Of a stretch of 17,519 nt of DNA, positions 90 through 11,071 are shown piece after piece (within the stretch, counting starts at the first letter, position 1; every line of letters begins with the position of its first letter). This DNA is from a virus (lineage: Duplodnaviria; Heunggongvirae; Uroviricota; Caudoviricetes). Under the pieces are notes generated by a model. It was not told where the DNA came from, did no database searches, and saw nothing but the letters and a program-made list of their open reading frames with translations. Made by a program: the position numbers and the translations under genes. The stretch is taken from the IMG/VR virus record IMGVR_UViG_3300033121_001080, positions 1 through 17,519 of that record, one strand, 5' to 3'.

Positions 90-2372
90 TTAATCTTGTT
101 TAATAATTTGTCTAGCTAACTTATGGGCCGGATGATCTTCCGGATATGATAATGCTGTTCTAATTTGAATATTGTTCTTTGTGACCGGGTTAATAATTTG
201 TCGTGACAAATCAAACGAGGTCTTGTTATGAGATGGTACTTCTTCAGGCGGAACGTCCTTTCGTGGAACTGGAGCGATCTGTGGCTCTTTTGGAGCTATT
301 GCAGGAGGCTGTTCTGGTTGTGCTCCATAACGCATCATACCCACAATTTGATTAACTGGCGCAAATGCTCCAGTTAATTTATAAACACCACTGCCATAAT
401 TAAATACAAGCCCCTCGCTAGATGTAATCTTATCCATTCCAATGGCATTTAATATATCAAGATTATCTTCCATCTTACGAATTTTATTTTGATCATTCGT
501 AGAACGGACAGATTCTATAGCTTTTTGAACAGCCTGTAACATTTCTTCTGCAGCCTGCGGGCTATTTGATGCCAACACATTTGTAATTCTTCCGATAGTT
601 TCAGCACCCAATTTTAATACAGGAATTTTGATAACATTAATGAATTTATTATTTAACGTTGCTGCTTCTCCATCTAACTTTCTAAACCATTCTTTTTTAT
701 CTGGAGGTAAATGTTTGACACCAAATGATTTGTCCCCGTATACCCAACGCTTAATAAGCGCCGCCTTTTCTGAATCGGCTAAGTCAACTTTTTCTTCGTG
801 AAGTTTCTTTAACCACTGAACAGTCATATAATCACCGATAGTATTATTCAAATCTAAGTGATTATTACGTGCAATTGTTGCGAATGTATTGGAGAATTCC
901 TTTGCAGCTTTATCATAATAATCGTTGTCGGATTCAGAAAATACTATAAAATGCTGACCTTGCATACCGTATGTTTGTTGCTGATGTGCATTATATGCTT
1001 GTAGTGCTGTAGAAAGTTCTTCACCCTCGTCTCTATTTTCAGCAACAGGATTTCCTTCGATATCGTACTCAATAGTTCCGTGAAAAAGTATCATGGACTT
1101 GTTATAAGGAATGACGTTAGTTGTAGATGGATTTATGATTTCCAAACTCATGAATTTTTTTCCATCTGCAAATAAACGATTTACTTCTTCTGGAGAAAGT
1201 GCGTCTATAGCACTTTGTAAATCAGAACCAGCAGTGCAAAATGATGCTTCAATAGCACCCTTACCAGCAAATTTTTGACATAACTGTTGTACATCCATTG
1301 CCTCCGCACCGAAATTTTTAAGTTGGCCCTTATTTCTAGAAAATACAATTCTACCATTCTTATAAGAAAATAGTAAATTTTGACCATCTGCCTTTTCTGC
1401 AACCGGCCCGTCTTTATCCAAGCCACCTTTTAATGATCTGTTTGTTAATTCTATTAAATCAGAGAATTTGAAATCCATATCTTCGTACGGATGTTGAATA
1501 TGTCCGTGAGCACCACCTTCTAACAATACACTCTCGTTCATCTTTGATCTAACAAACTTGTCTGCGGCTATATAAGCAGGATGATTCTTCTCATACTTTA
1601 ATGCAGAACCAACCAGAATATCATTACCAGTTTCAGGATTCTTGATTTTGTAATGTAAGAGCTTTTCTAATGTCTGATGTGTTTGTGTAATATCTGGTGT
1701 TGGGACTGATCCTTTTTCAGATGGAGGAGCAGTCATTGTAGAACCACTAAATCTTTGATTTAATAGTTGGTATGCTTCTTCATCAAACTTACCATAAATC
1801 TTTTTGAACAGATTTCTCTTTTCTTCTTCATCACCTTTTGCGAACGTATCTCGAATAGCAGTACCGGATATATTTTGACCGCCAACGTCCATTTCAAAGT
1901 CGGGAACATGTAAAACATATCCCTTAGTTTTAAATGGTTCCATTTCACTTTTATCTGAATGCGGGGAAAAATATTTACCAGTCGTTAATCTATCCGCATC
2001 TTTTTCACCCAATGCAAATATAGCTGGACGATTGGGGTCCATTTTAGAAAGTAATTCTACCGGTGCGTATGGAACTCGCGTTTTAATAATATGGCCGGGG
2101 TCAATTCCAAACATTTTTGAAATTAATTTTTGCTTATCATCAAAATTTAACGGGGATTTCCCCGGTTCAGTTTTATCACTGGTTGCAATATAAACATTAT
2201 CTGGACCGTATTTGTCCACTAATGTTTTATATACATGATAATGACCAGCATGAAATGGTTGAAATCTTCCCGGCAAAATAACAATCGGATTCGATTTTTC
2301 GTTTCCTTCAAACAAGAAACTTACTATCGAATTGGCTATTTCTGTTCCCAAACGTAGAGGACTTAAATCCAT
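90..2372 (-). CDS. 760-aa multidomain protein: N-terminal HxGH (cytidylyltransferase/NMNAT-like) nucleotidyltransferase plus ATP-dependent RNA-ligase-like covalent nucleotidyltransferase, with two copies of a ~40-aa repeat module
   Basis: GRFQPFHAGH (HxGH, aa 41-44) and ISGTAIRD closing motif; second domain has EKADG (K327), FSRN, SLEII, ILF, EGLVF (E653) and YKL (K665) in the order of ligase motifs I, Ia, III, IIIa, IV, V. SD AAGGGAG 6 nt before ATG. Confidence 0.8.
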   Translation of the reverse strand: MDLSPLRLGTEIANSIVSFLFEGNEKSNPIVILPGRFQPFHAGHYHVYKTLVDKYGPDNVYIATSDKTEPGKSPLNFDDKQKLISKMFGIDPGHIIKTRVPYAPVELLSKMDPNRPAIFALGEKDADRLTTGKYFSPHSDKSEMEPFKTKGYVLHVPDFEMDVGGQNISGTAIRDTFAKGDEEEKRNLFKKIYGKFDEEAYQLLNQRFSGSTMTAPPSEKGSVPTPDITQTHQTLEKLLHYKIKNPETGNDILVGSALKYEKNHPAYIAADKFVRSKMNESVLLEGGAHGHIQHPYEDMDFKFSDLIELTNRSLKGGLDKDGPVAEKADGQNLLFSYKNGRIVFSRNKGQLKNFGAEAMDVQQLCQKFAGKGAIEASFCTAGSDLQSAIDALSPEEVNRLFADGKKFMSLEIINPSTTNVIPYNKSMILFHGTIEYDIEGNPVAENRDEGEELSTALQAYNAHQQQTYGMQGQHFIVFSESDNDYYDKAAKEFSNTFATIARNNHLDLNNTIGDYMTVQWLKKLHEEKVDLADSEKAALIKRWVYGDKSFGVKHLPPDKKEWFRKLDGEAATLNNKFINVIKIPVLKLGAETIGRITNVLASNSPQAAEEMLQAVQKAIESVRSTNDQNKIRKMEDNLDILNAIGMDKITSSEGLVFNYGSGVYKLTGAFAPVNQIVGMMRYGAQPEQPPAIAPKEPQIAPVPRKDVPPEEVPSHNKTSFDLSRQIINPVTKNNIQIRTALSYPEDHPAHKLARQIIKQD
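93..212 (-). repeat. Copy 2 of the ~40-aa protein module (C-terminus of the 760-aa protein): DLSRQIINPVTKNNIQIRTALSYPEDHPAHKLARQIIKQD
   Basis: Ungapped alignment by hand: 14/40 identical to copy 1 and 19/40 to copy 3; follows a Pro-rich linker (QPEQPPAIAPKEPQIAPVPRKDVPPEEVP). Confidence 0.9.
1542..1661 (-). repeat. Copy 1 of the ~40-aa protein module (internal, aa 238-277, between the two catalytic domains): LLHYKIKNPETGNDILVGSALKYEKNHPAYIAADKFVRSK
   Basis: 18/40 identical to copy 3 and 14/40 to copy 2, no gaps; preceded by a Pro/Thr/Ser linker (STMTAPPSEKGSVPTPD) and followed by SVLLE-GGA. Confidence 0.9.
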
Positions 2373-2397
2373 GAAAAACTCCCTTAAGTAGCTATAT

Positions 2398-2405
2398 AAT
2401 AAATA
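2398..2405 (-). promoter_or_regulatory. Putative late-promoter box, variant TATTTATT
   Basis: One mismatch to the TATTTATA box found in three other intergenic gaps; lies in the gap 25 nt upstream of the ATG at 2372. Confidence 0.45.
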
Positions 2406-2418
2406 GTTACGAAATATT

Positions 2419-4134
2419 TCAAGCGCCAGTAAATCGAACTATTGGTGACTCTATTGTTATAGGAACCGTTTCTCCCTGAACATCTATCAATTCTGCTTTA
2501 AATTGCATTGTTCCAGATGGAATTCCGGACGTAGCCAATATTGGAAATATTGCTACGCAATCATTAGGAACAAATCCTCTGTCCGTTGCGACATTAATTT
2601 TAACGTTGGCAAATAGCCACTGGCCTCCGTAGATTAAAAATCTCAAGGCTCCCGTACCAGTAGCCGAGGTGATGAAATTAATATCCTGATCTACGAAATC
2701 TTGCTTCGTAGTTACGGTGTCAGTCGTGTAACTAGCTATTTTTACTCCGAATGGATCGGAGCTAGGAAATGCCGTGCCATAGAAATAAATGTCCATTTTA
2801 CCGTTAATTGAACTGTCTTTAAGACATGACATGTCTAAAGTAAGCTTATATTCCGTATCTTGGGTAAAATTGACAGTAGAATTGGCACCAATAAAATATA
2901 CCGGGGTAACGGATGCTGTGTAGAAAGTGCCCACCGAAGCTGAATATAGATTGGATGCGCTGCCCAATAAATACATTGAATTTAATGGAATATAATCAGA
3001 CGTATATCCGACATTTGGCAGCGTGGTTGTACCAGTAACATAAGAAGCACTTACTACATAATCTCCTATCCAATAAAAATTGGCTGTGGCTGGATCTTTA
3101 ATGTAACCCGTGTCAACCACATTCTCACCAGATAGAAGTAATTGTTGAGAAGCATAATTGATGAAGGTATTCAACTGCGGGCCTTCTATAATTTTCTCTC
3201 CAATATATTGATAATCACCAACATTTCCATACTTTCTAACATAGAATTTTGATTTGAATACGTATCCAGAAAACGTATTTAAATCTGTCAACGACAATTG
3301 AGCAAATGATCTTGTGGGGTTGCTGGCGGTGTAACTACTTGTGTAATATTGAAAATTACATTGTGTTGTAGTTGGGAATGTTAGATATGAAGTTCCATTA
3401 TTGAACGGAGATGAAAGTTTAATAATTCTGTTTGACCACACATCGGCAATACTAGAACTATATGTTACACCGTTAATAGATGCACTAAATCCACCATTAA
3501 CCATAGCTCCGTTAAATAGAGACGCAGATGCAATAACCAAGTAATCAATTTTATTTGGATTGTCATTGACGCTATATGCTGTTTTATTAACCGTTGAATA
3601 TAAGCCAGTTGAAGCACTAGCAATATTTGTTAAGTTGGCAATTCTATAAAGTGAGAGAAATTCTTGAACAGACAGTTCTGGTTGATTATAAAATCGAAGA
3701 GGAGAACGTGTAATTCTGGAAGGATCAACTAATATACTCTTAGTGTATTTTACATTATACTTGCCGCGCCATTCTGGCGGGATTGAGTTACCGTTTGCGT
3801 CGCGATCCAATTCTCCCATAATAGTCAACGTAGCAAACCCAGCAGGAGTATCTTCATAAACTTCAATTGAAATTACTCTCGAAAATCCTTCTTGATATTT
3901 TGAAATTGGTACCGAAAATATAGCATTACCTTCCGAGTCCAATACTTCAATAAGAATTTCGGTAGACCCTTTTAGATAGCCAGTTCCAAGTATCAAAAAT
4001 GAGTTTTTTCCCAACCCCAATACATCTGGAAATTGAGAAACTTTAAAGTATTTGGATAGTGGGTCTGTGTCAGTTATGTAGGTTTGAGCAACCGCCAGAC
4101 CAAGTGGAGAACTGTATTTTTTAAGTTTTGTCAT
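2419..4134 (-). CDS. 571-aa probable virion structural (tail/baseplate-associated) protein
   Basis: Long ORF rich in S/T/Y/G/N with beta-strand character, no catalytic motif recognised; SD GAGGG 5 nt upstream; preceded by a TATTTATA box like the tail genes. Function inferred only. Confidence 0.6.
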   Translation of the reverse strand: MTKLKKYSSPLGLAVAQTYITDTDPLSKYFKVSQFPDVLGLGKNSFLILGTGYLKGSTEILIEVLDSEGNAIFSVPISKYQEGFSRVISIEVYEDTPAGFATLTIMGELDRDANGNSIPPEWRGKYNVKYTKSILVDPSRITRSPLRFYNQPELSVQEFLSLYRIANLTNIASASTGLYSTVNKTAYSVNDNPNKIDYLVIASASLFNGAMVNGGFSASINGVTYSSSIADVWSNRIIKLSSPFNNGTSYLTFPTTTQCNFQYYTSSYTASNPTRSFAQLSLTDLNTFSGYVFKSKFYVRKYGNVGDYQYIGEKIIEGPQLNTFINYASQQLLLSGENVVDTGYIKDPATANFYWIGDYVVSASYVTGTTTLPNVGYTSDYIPLNSMYLLGSASNLYSASVGTFYTASVTPVYFIGANSTVNFTQDTEYKLTLDMSCLKDSSINGKMDIYFYGTAFPSSDPFGVKIASYTTDTVTTKQDFVDQDINFITSATGTGALRFLIYGGQWLFANVKINVATDRGFVPNDCVAIFPILATSGIPSGTMQFKAELIDVQGETVPITIESPIVRFTGA

Positions 4135-4153
4135 CGATGCCCTCAGAGTATAC

Positions 4154-4161
4154 TATAAATA
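4154..4161 (-). promoter_or_regulatory. Putative late-promoter box TATTTATA
   Basis: Exact TATTTATA on the coding strand, 19 nt upstream of the ATG at 4134 and immediately after a terminator. Confidence 0.6.
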
Positions 4162-4163
4162 TC

Positions 4164-4203
4164 ACAAAAAATCAAAAGGACCAGAATTCTGGCCCTTTTG
4201 ATT
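4164..4203 (-). terminator. Rho-independent terminator downstream of the Mre11-Rad50 fusion gene
   Basis: Minus-strand RNA AAUCAAAAGGGCCAG-AAUU-CUGGUCCUUUUGAUUUUUUG: GC-rich stem with one G-U pair (a mismatch on the plus strand, which fixes the orientation), 4-nt loop, U-rich tail; 20 nt after the stop at 4224. Confidence 0.85.
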
Positions 4204-4223
4204 GCGTAAGTTATTGTTACTTA

Positions 4224-7200
4224 TTATTTTACAGTGATATACGAGTATTCGTTCTCTCGTTTGATTTCGATGATAGTATCTGCTATATCTCGTACGGTAT
4301 CCAAATGACTGATTAAAATTATGAACTCAAATTTAGTCTTTAACATGTTGAATAACATGAACATAGATGCCAAATTTTCACTGTCCAAAACGCCCAATCC
4401 TTCGTCAATGACCAAGAAATTGGATCTAGGCAAGTTGCTGACGGACATTAAAGCTACTCGAATTGCCAATCCACTTATGAATTTTTCCATTCCAGAAGCT
4501 AATTCCAATGGCCATACTCGATCATCGTCATAAACAATTTTTCCATTAACATTCTTTCCGTCTACATCCAATATTATTGAAAAATTAACCAATTGATTTA
4601 ATACATTATTAACTTCGTCTTGAATAGTCGGCATGATATCAGATATTATGGAATATGGAATCCCATCTCTGGATACTGCTTCCATGTACAATTCATATGC
4701 TTCGTATGTCTTTTCAAGTTCTTTTGCCTCGGTCATAGACTGCATTATTTGATTTTTTTCAGACAAAGTTACAGAAATTTTACTGTGGAGATTCCGAAGT
4801 ATTACTTCGTCTTTGGATAATCTATTGACCAATTCCGTTTTGTTTTTTTCTATATCTTTGATTGCGGAATCAATCTGATCGTTTAATTCAATTGTCGTCT
4901 TGTCATTTTCAAATTCTGCTTTTGCTTTTTCTATTTTTTCTAATCTAGATTTGATAGATTCCATTGAATTGATAGTTTTCTCAATTTTCAATTCCGTGTT
5001 TTGTTTATTTGTAATTAGATTAGGTAAACTTGACTGTAGTCTTGTATATTGTTCGTACGTATCTTCTACATTTTGTAAGGTTCCTATCTTATCTTCTAAT
5101 GCGCGAATCTTAAATTCAGTTTGTTCAATTTCGCGCAAAAGAGAATCACGATCTTTTGCAGTTTGGATGGCATCTTTAACAAAGATATTATTTATACAAA
5201 ATTTGCAATTCGGATCATATTCATGCTTACTGAGATTATCAATTTTTTGATTTTTGTTTTTCAAATCTAAATTCATTATTTTCAATTTATGTTGTAGTTG
5301 GCTGTGTTCTGTTTTATAAGAAACGAGTTGTTTATTCTGTTCTATTAAATCAGAAACAGATGAATATGAATTTAATTTATCTTGAACTTCATCTATATTT
5401 TTATCAGTTAGTTCAACAATTTTGTGCAATCTATCTATTAAATCCACTGATTCAGATATTTGTTTATTGAATTCTTCTATCGCAGCATCATAATCTAAAT
5501 TCCACATCGATTTGATATGTGGGACTTTTGTTTCATACAACTGTTGAATGGTGTCACTTAACTGCTGAATTTCTTGTTTGTCAGATTCCACCTCACCAGT
5601 AAGAGTATCATACTGTTGTTCTAACGATTCAAGTTCTGTTTGTAAATCATTCAATTTTTGAGTGAAATCTATATTGGCAAATTTCTTTAGAGAATGTGCC
5701 ATTTCTTTACTTTCTTCTATTGCAAAATTAAGCAACTTATCGAATATAGTAAGCCCCATGAACTGACTCAACAAATCTTTTCTGTCTGACTGGCCCTTAT
5801 CTATAAACAACGAATTTTGTCCTTGCACGGATAGTGTAGTTAGAATAAAATCTTCGTAATCTCCAACGTAAGAACGTATGATCGCATTAGTATCTCTACG
5901 ATCCTCGCCAGTTAAGTTATCCCAGTTCTCTCCGTTCTTTTTGTAAAAATCCACATCTACTTTAACTTCACCATTCTTTTTACGAGAACCGGTTCTGTTA
6001 ATTTTATATGTTTCCCCATCAACTTCGAATTCAAATTCACAAGAGCAGGCATCTTCTCTGGTGTTCATGATATGATTGCCTTTGAATGCTCTTGGAGTTT
6101 TATCATACAGTGCAAAACACAATGCATCAAACGCACTGGTCTTTCCAGTCGCATTAGGAGAAAATACTCCATAAATGCCAGTCATATCTTCAAATTTAAT
6201 TTCATTTCCCTTTCCATAAGAAAACAGATTATCAAACTTGAGATTTAGCGGTTTCCATGTAATATTTTTTGGAAGTTGATCATCTATTATATTTGAATTT
6301 AATCGCGTATTTATTTCTACTATTTTCTTTACAGTATCTTCCGTGGCTGCTGGGAATGTATTTTTGACGTACGTCTCAATCAATTTGTTTTGATTAGAAA
6401 CCTCCTTAACATCCACTGCCGCAGACACTTTAGTATTTGTAGATGTAGTCTTAGGAATTAATTTGGAAACAGTGTATTCTAATACGACATGTTTCTTTCT
6501 GATCAACGATATGATTTTTTTAATCTCGGTGGCGTCTAAGTTCTCCGTCAGTAATCTGAGTCTGATGTTCTCTGGAATTCCTTGAGTACTAAACTTTTTC
6601 GAAGAGTCAATCTCCAAAGTTACATAACCATAGTTGTTTTTAACTGGATGATGTGTATGTGCCATTGTTGATAAATCCCATTCAATCCAACCATGGTTTT
6701 CTAACGTTTCACCGTGATTTTGTTGAATTAGAGAACCGGGATATAGAATAACTGGTGTAGATGATTGCAATACTTGATATTTGTGAATATCTCCCAACAT
6801 TACAATATCAAATCCAGCAAATCTCTTTATATCAAGAGCATGATTTGTAATAGTGTAACCAACATCCGTTTTTGCATTAATTAACGGACCATGATATAAT
6901 GCTACTTTGACATTGGATGATTTTGGAACATCAGGCCAACTAGCCGCGTCTCCTATAATTGAGAACACAGCGAAATCAACATTGTCAAATGTTGTGACAC
7001 CAGAATCTCGCAAGTAATATAGTGTTTTGGAATTGATGCTATCGACTATAGGAGTTAATGCATCTAATCTATGCGGGTTGGATAAATTTAAATCGTGGTT
7101 TCCAGCAATCAATATTGTTGGAGCTATGTCAGAAATTTTCTTCAAATATTCTGTGGTGAGAGCTACCATCTCAGGACTCATATCTGTTTTGGAGTGAACA

Positions 7201-7355
7201 ATATCACCTGCCAAAACAATCATTCCTTGTTTATTTACACGAGTATACCACGCCTGTAAATCGGTGCATAGTGTATCTAAAACTTGCCTGTATTCTTCGT
7301 GTCTCTTATATAATCGTATATGTAAATCTGCTATATGTGCTATACTTTTTATCAT
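4224..7355 (-). CDS. sbcD/sbcC: 1043-aa single-chain Mre11/SbcD nuclease - Rad50/SbcC ATPase fusion (T4 gp47/gp46-like recombination nuclease)
   Basis: Metallophosphoesterase motifs ADLH, AGDIVH, GNHD, LYHG, GDIH, YPGS; then Walker A SPNATGKT, Q-loop SVQGQ, long coiled coil with CKFC zinc hook (5196-5207), signature ASGME, Walker B FLVIDEG, D-loop LD, H-loop ISH. No stop between the two halves. Confidence 0.93.
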   Translation of the reverse strand: MIKSIAHIADLHIRLYKRHEEYRQVLDTLCTDLQAWYTRVNKQGMIVLAGDIVHSKTDMSPEMVALTTEYLKKISDIAPTILIAGNHDLNLSNPHRLDALTPIVDSINSKTLYYLRDSGVTTFDNVDFAVFSIIGDAASWPDVPKSSNVKVALYHGPLINAKTDVGYTITNHALDIKRFAGFDIVMLGDIHKYQVLQSSTPVILYPGSLIQQNHGETLENHGWIEWDLSTMAHTHHPVKNNYGYVTLEIDSSKKFSTQGIPENIRLRLLTENLDATEIKKIISLIRKKHVVLEYTVSKLIPKTTSTNTKVSAAVDVKEVSNQNKLIETYVKNTFPAATEDTVKKIVEINTRLNSNIIDDQLPKNITWKPLNLKFDNLFSYGKGNEIKFEDMTGIYGVFSPNATGKTSAFDALCFALYDKTPRAFKGNHIMNTREDACSCEFEFEVDGETYKINRTGSRKKNGEVKVDVDFYKKNGENWDNLTGEDRRDTNAIIRSYVGDYEDFILTTLSVQGQNSLFIDKGQSDRKDLLSQFMGLTIFDKLLNFAIEESKEMAHSLKKFANIDFTQKLNDLQTELESLEQQYDTLTGEVESDKQEIQQLSDTIQQLYETKVPHIKSMWNLDYDAAIEEFNKQISESVDLIDRLHKIVELTDKNIDEVQDKLNSYSSVSDLIEQNKQLVSYKTEHSQLQHKLKIMNLDLKNKNQKIDNLSKHEYDPNCKFCINNIFVKDAIQTAKDRDSLLREIEQTEFKIRALEDKIGTLQNVEDTYEQYTRLQSSLPNLITNKQNTELKIEKTINSMESIKSRLEKIEKAKAEFENDKTTIELNDQIDSAIKDIEKNKTELVNRLSKDEVILRNLHSKISVTLSEKNQIMQSMTEAKELEKTYEAYELYMEAVSRDGIPYSIISDIMPTIQDEVNNVLNQLVNFSIILDVDGKNVNGKIVYDDDRVWPLELASGMEKFISGLAIRVALMSVSNLPRSNFLVIDEGLGVLDSENLASMFMLFNMLKTKFEFIILISHLDTVRDIADTIIEIKRENEYSYITVK

Positions 7356-8278
7356 GCATTCACCTTTGATAATTTCATTGAAAGCCTATCTTTGAACGTT
7401 ACTTCTTTAGATTCTTCTATTAGTTTTCGCATACCAGCAAATCCAATTTCACTAGGATCTTTGCCTGTAAGATTAACCATATACACAGTTTGGCCATCTT
7501 TTAGCAATGTTTCGCACAGACGCATTGCTGCATTTGCCGCATCCGAATCTAACGCAATGTATATTTCACTGACTTGCTTTTCAACAATTTTTTGTTGTAA
7601 TTTGTTTTGTAATGTTTTTCCTAATAGTGGAATCGCGTTCCACTTAATTGCTATTGCATCCATCACTCCTTCACACAATACAATTGGGTAGTTCCAATTG
7701 ATGTGATAATCAAATCCAATTATGTTTTTGCTAATGGGTGGATTTTTGTATTTGAGTGTGCTATTGCCGAAGAAATCTCTACCAACAAAGTAGTTCAGTT
7801 TACCCGCATCATCATAACTAGGGATGATGATTCTGTTCGCGTACGGACCTGTGTTACAGTAGCCTATGCGGTATCTCATTATATCATATTTAGTGATGTT
7901 TCTTGATCGAAGATATTTTACTGCATGTTTGTATTCAAGTTCTTTGGTTGGAATCCACATTGGTTGGTAATCATCGGGAAGGCGTATTTCAACAGACGGA
8001 GTATCGTGTTGAACATACGATATTTCGTCGTGTAAAATAGTTTGTAACTCTCGTATCTGTTCTTTACTTACATTTAACTTTCTGAATAACGACAATAGTG
8101 TATAACCACCAGAATCACAAGTCCAACAATGCCATTTACCTTTTGAAAGATTTAATGCCAATTTTGGATTGTGATGATTGCAGAAGGGACAGTAAAAGTA
8201 GTATTCCGTGTGAGAATATTCCCTATACTGTCCCAATACAGATGCAGAAATTGAGAGTAGTTTGCTTACATCGTACAT
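7352..8278 (-). CDS. dnaG: 308-aa DnaG-type phage DNA primase (Zn finger plus TOPRIM)
   Basis: CPFC...HCWTC zinc ribbon, RIIIP, YFVGR, KYKNP, TOPRIM LCEGVMDA and ALDSD; SD GGAGG; its TGA overlaps the sbcD/C ATG (ATGA, 7355-7352), indicating translational coupling. Confidence 0.9.
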   Translation of the reverse strand: MYDVSKLLSISASVLGQYREYSHTEYYFYCPFCNHHNPKLALNLSKGKWHCWTCDSGGYTLLSLFRKLNVSKEQIRELQTILHDEISYVQHDTPSVEIRLPDDYQPMWIPTKELEYKHAVKYLRSRNITKYDIMRYRIGYCNTGPYANRIIIPSYDDAGKLNYFVGRDFFGNSTLKYKNPPISKNIIGFDYHINWNYPIVLCEGVMDAIAIKWNAIPLLGKTLQNKLQQKIVEKQVSEIYIALDSDAANAAMRLCETLLKDGQTVYMVNLTGKDPSEIGFAGMRKLIEESKEVTFKDRLSMKLSKVNA

Positions 8279-8295
8279 AAAACCTCCAATCTACA

Positions 8296-8324
8296 AAGAT
8301 AGCTAGATTAGATTTATTTGTCAA
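8296..8324 (-). promoter_or_regulatory. Sigma70-type (early) promoter for the primase - Mre11/Rad50 unit
   Basis: TTGACA (8324-8319), exactly 17 nt spacer (aataaatctaatctagc), TATCTT (8301-8296; keeps T-A-T-x-x-T), followed by the GGAGG SD and ATG at 8278. Confidence 0.7.
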
Positions 8325-8691
8325 GTACTTGAACTGGTGGTTTGAATACAGACATTAATTTAATAAAATGATCTAATGAAATGACTGCGTATGCTTTGCT
8401 ATTATTACGTTTGAACGCCAACACAGGTTCAATTCCGCTTTTACAATTAGACTCTGCTTGTTCTAACGCGCTCCATATATTAAGCTTTTCTTGGTTCTTT
8501 GCTTCTATAGAATATGGAATGAGTTTTCTAGCGGCAGGTGATAAAATTATATCTTCTCCCGATTGTCCCATAATTGTACAACGAACGTCATCTGGTTCTA
8601 AATGATCTTTAAATTCTTCTAATAGCTTATCTCGTACTTCCTGCTGAAATCTTCTGCCTTTTGCTTTACGTGACCGTGGTGTTTTTGCCAT
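8314..8691 (-). CDS. 125-aa PD-(D/E)XK Holliday junction resolvase-like protein (Hjc / T5 D14-like)
   Basis: N-terminal basic KAKGRRFQQEVRD helix, GEDII, IEAKN catalytic pattern and PVLAFKRN strand typical of phage Hjc-like resolvases; adjacent to primase. Confidence 0.75.
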   Translation of the reverse strand: MAKTPRSRKAKGRRFQQEVRDKLLEEFKDHLEPDDVRCTIMGQSGEDIILSPAARKLIPYSIEAKNQEKLNIWSALEQAESNCKSGIEPVLAFKRNNSKAYAVISLDHFIKLMSVFKPPVQVLDK

Positions 8692-8709
8692 GATAATTCT
8701 CTATTAAAG

Positions 8710-10290
8710 TTATTGATTTCGTTTTATGAAATCTTCTGCCGCTTTTCTGACCGGGTGATCGTGGTCATACTGTAGGGCTGTTTTAATAAGTATGTCGTGA
8801 TTAGTGACAGGATTGCGAATTTTCTGATTCAATAGATCATTAGCATGTCCACTAGTCATCGTTGGTTCATTAACAGCAGACGCAGCAATTTGCATTGCCT
8901 GATCTCTAGTCATTTCAGGATTTTCATACCACGCATCTTCAACCGCAGCCAAGATTTTCTTAATTTCTGGTCCCGGCTTCATGTTAAATGCAGTCATGAT
9001 ATCATTTCCATTGACAGGAAGTTTTGGTTTTGCTGGAATGACCATCGTAATATTCTTGATTCTATCAGCCATTGCAGGAATTTGATTAGGCATTGATGCG
9101 CCTTCTGCATGTGAAATATTATCAGCGTGCATTAATTTAAACGCCGGGTCAAGATCATTCCCCATGTGAGCAGCAAATTTACGTAATGCCTTATCAGAAA
9201 CTTGATCACCATTTGGACCGGCACTTTTCAAACGCATATGATTGGCAACGATGTTAACTACAGATTGAATTTGTTCTGTAGAATACTTCATGCGTTTCAT
9301 AATATTAGCTGCCATTTCCGCACCAACATCTTCGTGCTTATAGAAATGAATTCCAGTTTCATCTTCTGTCTTGACGGCTGGTTTTGCAATATCGTGGAAA
9401 ATGGCAGACAGTCTCACAACCAAATCTGGCGGTGTGTTGGATAATACTTCCATCGTGTGAGAAAACACATCATCTTTGTGATATTGATTCTGACCGACAC
9501 CAATCGTAGCAATTATTTCTGGTAGGAAATATGTTGCCAATCCAGTATACGTGAGCAATTTTACTGCTTCTGCCGGTCTGTCAGATAGAAGCATTTTGTT
9601 GAATTCATCTTGAATTCGCTCCATGGAAATATTCTTCAACATACCGGCATTCTTTTTCAAGGAATCAACGATATATGTCGGAATTTTCCAGTTATAACGT
9701 ACAGCAAAACGGATGACGCGCAACATGCGAAGCGGATCATCTTCAAATGTAATATCAGGATCTAATGGAGTGCGAATAACATGATCTTTGATATCTTGCA
9801 TTCCCAATCCTGTTGGGTCTAGAATTTTGCCTGTGGTTAGATCTTTGTACATTGCATTAATTGTCAAATCTCTGCGTTCTGCATCTGTCTTAAGATCTGC
9901 ATATACAACATCTGGTTTTCTTGATCCAGCGGTATACTTTTCTCCACGAGTCATAACAGCCTCAATATCAATATCAGACAAATCAAGACCGTCAACTTTC
10001 ACACCGCGAAGATTAAATTTCGCCGTTCCAAATCTAGGAAATATTAGAGGATTAACATCCTTTTTGTATGCACCAGTTTTTTTACAAATCCATTCAGCAA
10101 ATGTAATTCCACCATCTTGCATTGTTACAACAATATCAATATCTTTTACCGGCTTGCCCATAACTTGATCTCTGATTGCACCACCTGCTAATAGTACATG
10201 ATTTTCGAATGGGCTTCCCTTTAAAAGTCGGCTCAAGTAGTTTAATACAAATGTTTCTTTATTTTCTAATAAAAGCCGCAATTTAATCAC
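8710..10290 (-). CDS. cca: 526-aa class II tRNA nucleotidyltransferase (CCA-adding enzyme) with HD domain and C-terminal ~40-aa repeat module; GTG start
   Basis: AGGAIRD..KDIDIVV (D50, D52), RGEKY..SRKP flexible loop, ERRDLTINAM, FEDDPLRMLR, ERIQDEFNKML, HD domain (SHT..FHDIAKP, H299/D300), C-terminal PVNGNDIM..PGPEI; GTG at 10290-10288 with SD GGAG 7 nt upstream. Confidence 0.92.
   Translation of the reverse strand: MIKLRLLLENKETFVLNYLSRLLKGSPFENHVLLAGGAIRDQVMGKPVKDIDIVVTMQDGGITFAEWICKKTGAYKKDVNPLIFPRFGTAKFNLRGVKVDGLDLSDIDIEAVMTRGEKYTAGSRKPDVVYADLKTDAERRDLTINAMYKDLTTGKILDPTGLGMQDIKDHVIRTPLDPDITFEDDPLRMLRVIRFAVRYNWKIPTYIVDSLKKNAGMLKNISMERIQDEFNKMLLSDRPAEAVKLLTYTGLATYFLPEIIATIGVGQNQYHKDDVFSHTMEVLSNTPPDLVVRLSAIFHDIAKPAVKTEDETGIHFYKHEDVGAEMAANIMKRMKYSTEQIQSVVNIVANHMRLKSAGPNGDQVSDKALRKFAAHMGNDLDPAFKLMHADNISHAEGASMPNQIPAMADRIKNITMVIPAKPKLPVNGNDIMTAFNMKPGPEIKKILAAVEDAWYENPEMTRDQAMQIAASAVNEPTMTSGHANDLLNQKIRNPVTNHDILIKTALQYDHDHPVRKAAEDFIKRNQ
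8713..8835 (-). repeat. Copy 3 of the ~40-aa protein module (C-terminus of the CCA enzyme): LLNQKIRNPVTNHDILIKTALQYDHDHPVRKAAEDFIKRNQ
   Basis: Appended after the normal end of the CCA fold; 18/40 and 19/40 identical to the two copies in the 760-aa protein. Confidence 0.9.
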
Positions 10291-11071
10291 TTGACAACTC
10301 CGATATTAATTTTGTTCCTAAATAAAATCTATATATTAAATTATGTTGTTTACAATATTCTTTTGCTACTGTTGCTTTTATCTTATCAATCGGTTTTATC
10401 CATCCTTTAACTTCATCTAAAAATTTATTATCTACTAAAAAATCTGGTATGTAATACGTGTGCAATTCATTATTAATATATGGAATTCGTATACCATGTT
10501 TTTTAGTCCACACCACATTTATTGATTCATAAAAATTCATTCTATTTTCTTCTAGCGAAGAATCAAACCATTCTTTATTGCCATCATTTTTTGAAAACCA
10601 GCCGGTTTTCCAATTATTTTTTATAGAATATTTTCCTTCTGCTAGTCTTTTCGTATATGTATCTATTCGTTTTTCTAATAATTTTTTATTTTTTGCTGGG
10701 TTGTTACGTGCCCAACGATCAATTGAAATCAAATTATTTTGTTTCCACCCATCAGAATCAATAATTTTTTGTATATTTATAGAATCTTTCATTGAATTAT
10801 TATCAGATATTTTTTTTCGTACATCCAATCGTTTGGCTGGATTGTTTTCTCCTAAAAATTTAGCTACAACATCTTCATTTTTCATAGGGTTGTTATTTAA
10901 CCATCTCTGTCTTTTTTCTTCGCGCCGTTTTGGCGTCCACGAATCTTTATATTTTTTTCTTTGCTCATCGGTGCGCTTTTTATTTTTTGTACTATGACCG
11001 ACAATATATCTATTATGTTGTTGTTTTTTATTTAACTTAGTAATATTACCACATCCACATTCACATAACAT
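10283..11071 (-). CDS. 262-aa free-standing homing-endonuclease-like protein: CxCGCG..GH N-terminus, NUMOD3-like repeats, C-terminal PD-(D/E)XK (TnsA-like) nuclease
   Basis: MLCECGCG..VGH; basic repeats NNPMK, NNPAK, NNSMK, NNPAK; SSLEE helix and YIPDFL..EVKG catalytic motif; visibly more A/T-rich than flanking genes; overlaps the cca start by 8 nt. Confidence 0.78.
   Translation of the reverse strand: MLCECGCGNITKLNKKQQHNRYIVGHSTKNKKRTDEQRKKYKDSWTPKRREEKRQRWLNNNPMKNEDVVAKFLGENNPAKRLDVRKKISDNNSMKDSINIQKIIDSDGWKQNNLISIDRWARNNPAKNKKLLEKRIDTYTKRLAEGKYSIKNNWKTGWFSKNDGNKEWFDSSLEENRMNFYESINVVWTKKHGIRIPYINNELHTYYIPDFLVDNKFLDEVKGWIKPIDKIKATVAKEYCKQHNLIYRFYLGTKLISELSSD

Follow-up and report, generated by a model that had tools for sequence, protein, structure and literature searches.

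Why should a phage attach one and the same short segment to enzymes of different kinds? The question is raised by a 17,519-nucleotide stretch of DNA (hereafter the window) from a huge, uncultured phage of the class Caudoviricetes (IMG/VR record IMGVR_UViG_3300033121_001080). An 81.5-kb viral contig, rated 37% complete by CheckV, begins with these 17.5 kb. Two minus-strand genes of the window carry three copies of a segment of about 45 residues, which we call the tag. One of them (90..2372) encodes a 760-aa protein in which an HxGH transferase, a tag, a ligase-like domain and a second tag follow one another. The other (8710..10290) encodes a 526-aa class II tRNA nucleotidyltransferase of the CCA-adding type (the CCA/HD enzyme), which has an HD domain, ends in a tag and is identified by Pfam, PDB and motif matches. 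A sequence-only reading of the window had noticed the tag and proposed that it marks a tRNA repair or anti-defence kit delivered with the virion, in which the HxGH domain makes a cofactor. Our analysis describes the tag as an old, mobile, previously undescribed accessory mini-domain of uncultured, mostly large phages, borne mainly by nucleic-acid or end-acting enzymes. We tentatively read it as a nucleic-acid tether, with a probability of about 0.42. The theme of tRNA maintenance is reasonable and partly supported, and the virion and NAD parts of the proposal are not supported.

Cutting of tRNA is a frequent means of killing in host defence, to which large phages respond with tRNAs and repair enzymes of their own. 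The window leads to two large phage protein families that had not been described. One is the 45-residue domain, counted in no fewer than 611 protein clusters; the other is an obligate fusion of an NMN adenylyltransferase (NMNAT)-like and an RNA-ligase-like domain, with more than 700 homologues. Uncultured large phages have both in abundance, on enzymes that maintain tRNA. A common handle on phosphatases, ligases and CCA enzymes could reveal how these activities reach their substrate or each other, and the fused transferase–ligase may be a new chemical route for RNA end-joining.

The tag and its fold

To keep the test of the tag non-circular, 34 tags taken from other proteins were used to build a hidden Markov model (HMM), and all six reading frames of the entire 81.5-kb contig were searched with it. 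The model matched only three places, the next best match having E >2. Copy 1 follows the HxGH domain at residues 226–281 of the 760-aa protein (1530..1697, minus strand; independent E-value 2.6e-21), and copy 2 follows the ligase-like domain at residues 709–760 of the same protein (93..248, minus strand; 2.8e-18). Copy 3 forms the C-terminus of the CCA/HD enzyme, residues 474–526 (8713..8871, minus strand; 2e-20), and its AF2 model has a pLDDT of 86. In pairwise BLASTP comparisons the three copies are 32–49% identical over 39–50 aa (E 3e-9 to 1e-13), with 12 invariant positions common to all of them. These results confirm that the tag is real and that, within the 81.5 kb, it is confined to these two genes.

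The AF2 model of the tag consists of a helix, a beta-hairpin with an invariant N-P-x-T turn, a short helix and a further helix, and the conserved residues (N, P, T, A and I/L/Y) look mainly structural. Foldseek comparison of this model with PDB and the AFDB clusters returned nothing below E 1, and the best match in a wide VIA-align search (Z 3.2) was at noise level, so that no solved structure resembles it. A fold search of the ESM Atlas found the tag fold in viral clusters of DUF2608 (189 members) and SAM lyase (1300 members), with TM-scores of 0.78–0.79 and root-mean-square deviations of 1.2–1.3 Å. The tag falls in no Pfam family: scanning 37 tags against Pfam at E ≤10 gave scattered weak matches (tRNA-synt_2d for 3 of the 37, 2C_adapt for 1 of the 37), none of which was accepted, and our literature search found no paper on DUF5661, DUF2608 or DUF3293.

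Short targeting or adaptor modules are known elsewhere: the promiscuous adaptor domains of giant viruses (2C_adapt), dockerins and encapsulin cargo peptides. The tag is like them in being a short module on many unrelated enzymes of one virus group, and its N-P-x-T-G hairpin is reminiscent of 2C_adapt. It differs from 2C_adapt in that the single tag with a match reaches only E 0.025, in having no conserved cysteines and in its partners, which are mostly nucleic-acid enzymes.

Distribution of the tag in viral proteins

When 1.84 billion cluster representatives were searched with a profile of 37 tag sequences, 611 protein clusters reached E ≤1e-3 and 206 reached E ≤1e-10; their proteins are between 46 and 1591 aa long. 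In the best 139 proteins, 82 copies of the tag were C-terminal, 46 internal and 15 N-terminal. Thirty of these 139 matches lay in proteins shorter than 110 aa, many of them visibly fragments, and 37 of the 139 proteins belonged to the transferase–ligase family. A tblastn search of two tag sequences against 50,697 GenBank phages gave no match.

Partner domains were assigned with Pfam and PHROG in 91 tagged clusters. The commonest identified partner was a Pnk-type polynucleotide kinase/phosphatase (phrog_415; 10/91), followed by primase/Toprim (8), Mom-like proteins (7) and cytidyltransferases of the transferase–ligase kind (7). Topo IB, AAA_33/Zeta kinase, GNAT, HAD and ParB-like domains were found three times each, SAM lyase twice, and an ADP-ribosyltransferase, a DNA methyltransferase and a head protease once each; the CCA enzyme was also among the Pfam partners. 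Tagged proteins encoded in IMG/VR contigs included three CCA/HD enzymes, Pnk-type HAD phosphatases at five scanned loci that match phrog_415 (with further open reading frames (ORFs) of the same length and layout), a Mom protein, two SAM lyases and a GNAT protein. The sequence-only reading had described the three tagged domains as all being nucleotidyl-transfer enzymes. This holds in this genome but does not characterise the tag, which elsewhere is carried by phosphatases, Mom, Topo IB, SAM lyase and others. Recurrence of the tag on end-healing, sealing and CCA-restoring enzymes of related phages is borne out by the phrog_415 proteins and by the CCA homologues described below.

Two of the tagged arrangements are worth describing separately. 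A 415-aa protein (L002:8941-10188) combines a primase-type Toprim domain, a Pnk-type HAD phosphatase and a tag, a fusion that suggests an end-processing nuclease/phosphatase, not a primase. SAM-lyase/DUF3293 proteins with a C-terminal tag are encoded at L026:9416-10129 and L043:9395-10132, on IMG/VR contigs of 63.6 and 176 kb. Both genes lie about 500 nt upstream of a transfer-messenger RNA (tmRNA) gene and an array of 23–24 tRNA genes, and, given their common gene order, the two arrays probably represent one lineage.

The tag usually occurs once per catalytic unit, with up to four repeats in one polypeptide. A complete 217,729-bp relative with terminal repeats (G001) has six copies in four proteins, namely a transferase–ligase, a CCA enzyme, a Toprim protein and a 132-aa ORF, whereas two other near-complete genomes each have one clear tagged protein. 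Tags at the same position are 57–60% identical across genomes, compared with 42% between positions within one protein. In the tag tree, the copies that follow the ligase (the position of copy 2) form their own clade across genomes (support 96/87), and position labels need 5 changes, as against 23 for shuffled labels. These sequence relationships indicate that tags are inherited with their enzyme and are not homogenised within a genome. The tag is also an add-on: tagged and untagged forms of the same complete enzyme exist, both for the CCA enzyme and for the transferase–ligase, the untagged form of the latter being that of phage Mel-JY01.

The CCA/HD enzyme and its tRNAs

Apart from the tag, the CCA/HD enzyme consists of a body of 473 residues (residues 1–473; 8872..10290, minus strand), delimited by the endpoint of untagged homologues. 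Pfam recognises PolyA_pol (7.6e-21), PolyA_pol_RNAbd (1e-16), tRNA_NucTran2_2 (7.8e-10) and, at residues 290–365, HD (3.3e-9), and the protein matches tRNA nucleotidyltransferases of PDB at E 2.5e-29. Its Pol-beta head carries GGAIRD (residues 36–41; GGxxRD) and DIDIVV (residues 50–55; DxD). The motifs of the nucleotide-selecting pocket are present as motif B, ERRDLTINA (residues 138–146), and motif D (EDxxR; EDDPLR) within EDDPLRMLRVIRF (residues 183–195). Further towards the C-terminus are H278, the pair H299-D300 (FHD motif) and HADNISH (residues 388–394), from which an HD phosphohydrolase domain as in E. coli Cca is predicted. The likeness to E. coli Cca extends to the Pol-beta head with GGxxRD and DxD, RRD, EDxxR, the neck and body domains and the HD domain; the phage enzyme differs by its extra C-terminal 53-aa tag and by serving 46 tRNA genes, all without an encoded CCA. 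Among the 120 nearest CCA homologues, the closest 70 are all tagged; the next 50 measure about 475 aa and end at the start of the tag linker.

The PDB matches mix CCA-adding, A-adding and poly(A) enzymes at similar E-values. The genome context favours CCA addition, as the 3' CCA is encoded by none of the 46 tRNA genes, which lie with a tmRNA gene at positions 34722–67641 of the contig (17–50 kb past the window end), all on the minus strand. G001 has 59 tRNA genes and a tmRNA gene, and its two tRNA genes with an encoded CCA (2/59) are about what chance would give. CCA addition is therefore needed for every tRNA of the phage, host defence or not, and the enzyme has an ordinary role in tRNA maturation, with repair possible on top. 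This everyday job is what the sequence-only reading overlooked in proposing tRNA repair. Other elements of its theme stand: phosphatases, ligases and CCA enzymes are tagged in relatives, and the tagged CCA enzyme and tagged transferase–ligase occur together in G001, in a block syntenic with the window. Seven further contigs probably carry the same pair, matched by length only.

The two window enzymes would keep a very large phage-encoded tRNA set usable. In such a scheme the CCA/HD enzyme would add CCA to the phage's own tRNAs; if it behaves like E. coli Cca, it could in addition clean up damaged 3' ends and rebuild them. This repertoire recalls the healing and sealing of cleaved tRNA by T4 Pnk plus Rnl1 and the bacterial Pnkp1–Rnl–Hen1 repair complex (PMC4411300), in that a 3'-phosphatase, a ligase and 3'-end restoration are all tagged across related phages. 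It differs from both in what links the phage activities, which is a common appended domain and neither an operon nor a known complex. Neither the window nor the 37%-complete contig yielded a 5' kinase or phosphatase, and the sole AAA_33 frame of G001 is a separate ORF of 141 aa. Two canonical RNA_ligase (PF09414) genes lie in the tRNA island of the contig.

The transferase–ligase protein

The N-terminal domain of the 760-aa protein (residues 1–225; 1698..2372, minus strand) is assigned to the HIGH superfamily of nucleotidyltransferases (HxGH), as an NMNAT-like member, from its motifs and profile matches. It contains GRFQPFHAGH (residues 35–44; nt 2241–2270) and ISGTAIR (residues 168–174; nt 1851–1871). 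The Pfam CTP_transf_like score, 20.5 bits, falls just short of the cut-off of 21, and the PHROG annotation 'cytidyltransferase' is reached at E 1.5e-10. With a profile of 80 sequences, the best matches were NadM (2qjt, E 2.1e-7) and archaeal MJ0541 (1f9a, E 2.5e-6), spanning the N-terminal 60–70 residues only. The domain has in common with NadM and the archaeal NMN adenylyltransferases the signatures GRFQPFHxGH and ISGTxIR; it differs from NadM in never being free-standing, always ligase-fused and just below the Pfam cut-off.

The middle domain (residues 282–708; 249..1529, minus strand) was assigned as a covalent nucleotidyltransferase of the RNA-ligase-like kind by motifs and an AF2 model. 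Motif I (KxDG), EKADGQN (nt 1377–1397), supplies the predicted catalytic lysine K327; motif III is MSLEII (nt 1134–1151; E411), motif IV SEGLVF (nt 402–419; E653) and motif V VYKLTG (nt 369–386; K665). Five motifs of the lysyl-nucleotide ligase superfamily (I, Ia, III, IV and V) are invariant in 69 homologous sequences. Sequence searches with the 427-aa domain gave no Pfam RNA_ligase match at E ≤0.01, and the 69-sequence profile gave no PDB match. In the AF2 model (pLDDT 90.3), a helical insert separates motif IIIa from motif IV by about 160 aa. The model's best VIA-align matches are NgrRnl (Z 8.9), Trl1 (8.8), REL1 (8.1), Rnl1 (8.0) and Rnl2 (7.9); the best nine are all ligases, eight of them RNA ligases (Z 7.5–8.9), and DNA ligases follow at Z 5.3–7.3. 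The top rows of a Foldseek search were likewise RNA ligases, with a probability of up to 0.98 and E about 1e-2. Because the nine top matches are all ligases, eight of them RNA ligases, and the motifs are intact, we infer from the model that the domain is a divergent lysine-nucleotidyl ligase of the RNA-ligase fold, probably acting on RNA rather than DNA, the Z values being moderate. The fold is that of ATP-dependent RNA ligases such as Naegleria NgrRnl (Rnl5), the fungal Trl1 ligase domain, T4 Rnl1 and Rnl2 and Trypanosoma REL1, with 182–211 residues aligned; the phage domain differs from them in being 11–16% identical, in having the helical insert in place of a known flanking domain and in its constant fusion to an HxGH domain. 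All three enzyme identities proposed in the sequence-only reading, the CCA-adding/HD enzyme, the RNA-ligase-type fold and the NMNAT-like HxGH domain, are upheld by these Pfam, motif and structural matches.

The 760-aa protein has 707 homologues at E ≤1e-3, and the two catalytic domains are fused, in either order, in all 119 homologues examined. In the cultured Microcystis phage Mel-JY01, transferase and ligase are fused directly, with no tags. One relative carries a cyclic-phosphate-processing cREC domain between ligase and transferase, and published analyses link the cREC domain to RNA repair (PMC7824862). In two longer relatives (P0136 and P0025, in the latter at residues 1061–1250), two tags flank a further domain, for which ParB_N-like leads below the threshold were obtained. 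For the extra N-terminal and inter-tag regions of P0025, a PDB sequence search found nothing, and an ESM Atlas feature search gave sub-threshold leads only (ParB_N-like and metallopeptidase-like).

The gene adjoins replication and recombination genes, which would suit a DNA ligase of the replication module, and the obligate NMNAT-like fusion would suit an NAD-dependent ligase supplied locally with NAD. We nevertheless regard either alternative to an RNA repair ligase as decidedly unlikely. DNA ligases are among the structural matches and rank below the RNA ligases, NgrRnl coming first; the secondary-structure string of the AF2 model has no OB domain, no LigA-type adenylation domain was found, and the cREC fusion of the one relative speaks for RNA. 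In G001, moreover, a separate ATP-dependent DNA ligase (PF01068) is encoded. Since G001 also has its own NadM and NadV, its fused HxGH domain is not its NAD salvage enzyme and its fused ligase is not its replicative DNA ligase. In phage NAD salvage an NMN adenylyltransferase is paired with NadV (PMC9503650); the NadM of G001 is a 311-aa CTP_transf plus NUDIX gene beside NadV, and the ligase-fused copies lie 57 kb away. This, together with the fusion to a ligase in every homologue, weakens the claim that the HxGH domain makes a cofactor. On the RNA-ligase interpretation, the NMNAT-like transferase would work together with its fused ligase. At 180796-185050 of G001 (L044), the ATP-dependent DNA ligase, NadM (transferase plus Nudix) and NadV (NAMPT) are encoded side by side.

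Possible roles of the tag

The reading that we prefer, at the probability given above, is that the tag is a tether between the enzyme that bears it and that enzyme's RNA or DNA substrate, and so would raise the local concentration. It would do so independently on each enzyme and not as a packaging signal. Nucleic acid is the most economical target because nucleic-acid enzymes dominate the partner spectrum. Charge is consistent with such a target, 97% of 322 distinct tags being net positive (mean +4.7 per 40 aa). The near-complete genomes with a single tagged protein imply that the tag cannot depend on other tagged partners. Its behaviour suits a self-sufficient handle better than it suits a signal of which each polypeptide needs one, or a surface that has to match one common receptor.

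Several observations weigh against a tether. The three window tags are only weakly basic (net charge +2 to +3 for the core of 37 residues, 0 to +1 when all 52–56 aa are counted), and some partners (SAM lyase, GNAT, ADP-ribosyltransferase) have no obvious polymer substrate. The invariant residues look structural and so point to no binding surface, and the want of a solved structure with this fold leaves nothing to borrow by analogy. Finally, the 132-aa ORF of G001 (138808-139206; L045:809-1207), which has an N-terminal tag followed by a low-complexity tail, comes directly after a T4-type major capsid gene (Pfam Gp23, E 3e-52), a position compatible with a head-related role.

The tag might instead be a protein–protein docking module for a common hub, such as a phage or host scaffold, an RNA-repair complex, the ribosome or the acidic tail of a protein like SSB (single-stranded-DNA-binding protein), where healing, sealing and CCA-restoring enzymes would work next to one another. 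This corresponds to the co-localisation part of the sequence-only proposal. The enzymes in question (Pnk-type phosphatase, ligase and CCA/HD enzyme) are all tagged in related phages, the complete relative has four tagged proteins, and multi-tag proteins with no recognised catalytic domain (P0171 and P0174) could serve as scaffolds; bacterial RNA repair by Pnkp1–Rnl–Hen1 is likewise the work of a complex (PMC4411300). Two near-complete genomes with a single tagged protein are hard to reconcile with docking, as is the divergence of copies within one genome, which are 34–46% identical and mostly at structural positions, where a common receptor surface should be better conserved. No candidate receptor was identified, and we consider docking to a hub rather unlikely. 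A more specific version makes the tag an address label that gathers nucleic-acid end-processing and DNA-modifying enzymes at one site in the cell or particle. Such a modular phage 'repairosome', in which Pnk-type phosphatase, Toprim nuclease, RNA ligase and CCA/HD enzyme would be held together by a new docking domain and a putative receptor, seems to us unlikely.

It is very unlikely that the tag has no binding role and merely caps or spaces enzyme domains, keeping them soluble or apart in long fusions. Its occurrence between domains as well as at both termini and its mainly structural conserved residues would agree with this. A pure spacer, on the other hand, would not keep the identity that tags at one position show across genomes, would not be appended to single-domain enzymes able to function without it, and would not form the first part of short ORFs in which no enzyme domain is recognised.

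Virion delivery, the central claim of the sequence-only reading, was a tempting over-reading. The tag would then be a capsid-targeting or co-injection signal, and the enzymes would be carried in the particle and active from the first minute of infection. The cargo does resemble first responders (SAM lyase, Mom, ADP-ribosyltransferase and RNA-repair enzymes), one tagged cluster matches a head maturation protease PHROG, and the 132-aa ORF of G001 directly follows its gp23 major capsid gene. Fusion to, or encoding within, head proteins (MuF, portal or capsid) is a contextual sign of virion-packaged enzymes (PMC9503650). None of the 91 tagged clusters contains a MuF, portal or capsid domain, and no head-protein fusion was seen among them. 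Both tagged genes lie in a replication and recombination block with primase, Mre11–Rad50 and nuclease genes; the CCA gene and its upstream neighbour overlap by 8 nt; and a strong terminator-like hairpin (4170-4203, minus strand; a 15-bp stem with 6 GC pairs, then a T run) separates the two tagged genes, which therefore belong to different transcription units. Repetition of the tag per catalytic unit in a single polypeptide is unexpected where one signal would do, and the lack of matches in the 50,697 GenBank phages means that no cultured carrier is available. The lineage has a T4-type capsid (Gp23), and T4 sends proteins to its head through other signals, short cleaved N-terminal peptides and not C-terminal domains.

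Late-type promoter boxes upstream of both genes had also been cited for packaging. TATATAG is the only word common to the two upstream regions. The base composition of the contig predicts about 34 occurrences; 22 are observed (both strands), most of them within genes, so that the word is no commoner than chance would make it. The T4-type late promoter word TATAAATA was absent upstream of either tagged gene and of the G001 capsid gene, so that the search of these regions defines no late-promoter class for the lineage. Taken with the evidence from partners and gene context, this makes packaging highly improbable.

Gene context of the window

Every long ORF of the window is on the minus strand, and the first gene to be transcribed encodes a large protein with no assignment (from 17518 down to 14102), which continues past the window end. 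Four further proteins with no assignment lie between it and the gene for an endonuclease-I-like protein (10283-11071) in the order of transcription. The CCA/HD gene is followed by those for a PDDEXK nuclease (8314-8691) and a DnaG-type primase (7352-8278), assigned, like the endonuclease, by Pfam and PHROG. Next comes a 1043-aa single-chain Mre11–Rad50 fusion (4224-7355), which unites in one polypeptide a phosphoesterase of the Mre11 type and a coiled-coil ATPase of the Rad50/SbcC type; the fusion is kept in G001 with 48% identity. The hairpin described above directly follows this gene. Between the hairpin and the transferase–ligase gene lies the gene for a 571-aa protein (2419-4134), rich in Ser, Thr, Tyr and Asn and with no family match. 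An ESM Atlas search with this protein gave weak sugar-binding or Ig-like leads and nothing more, and a counterpart with 33% identity also follows the Mre11–Rad50 gene in G001. A megablast search of the window against the 50,697 GenBank phages returned no match. Elsewhere in the contig, at 51543-51689 (minus strand), a 96-aa open frame inside the tRNA island matches the Gp23 capsid family over the family's first 48 positions; this match is isolated and may mark a fragment of a capsid gene or part of a split one.

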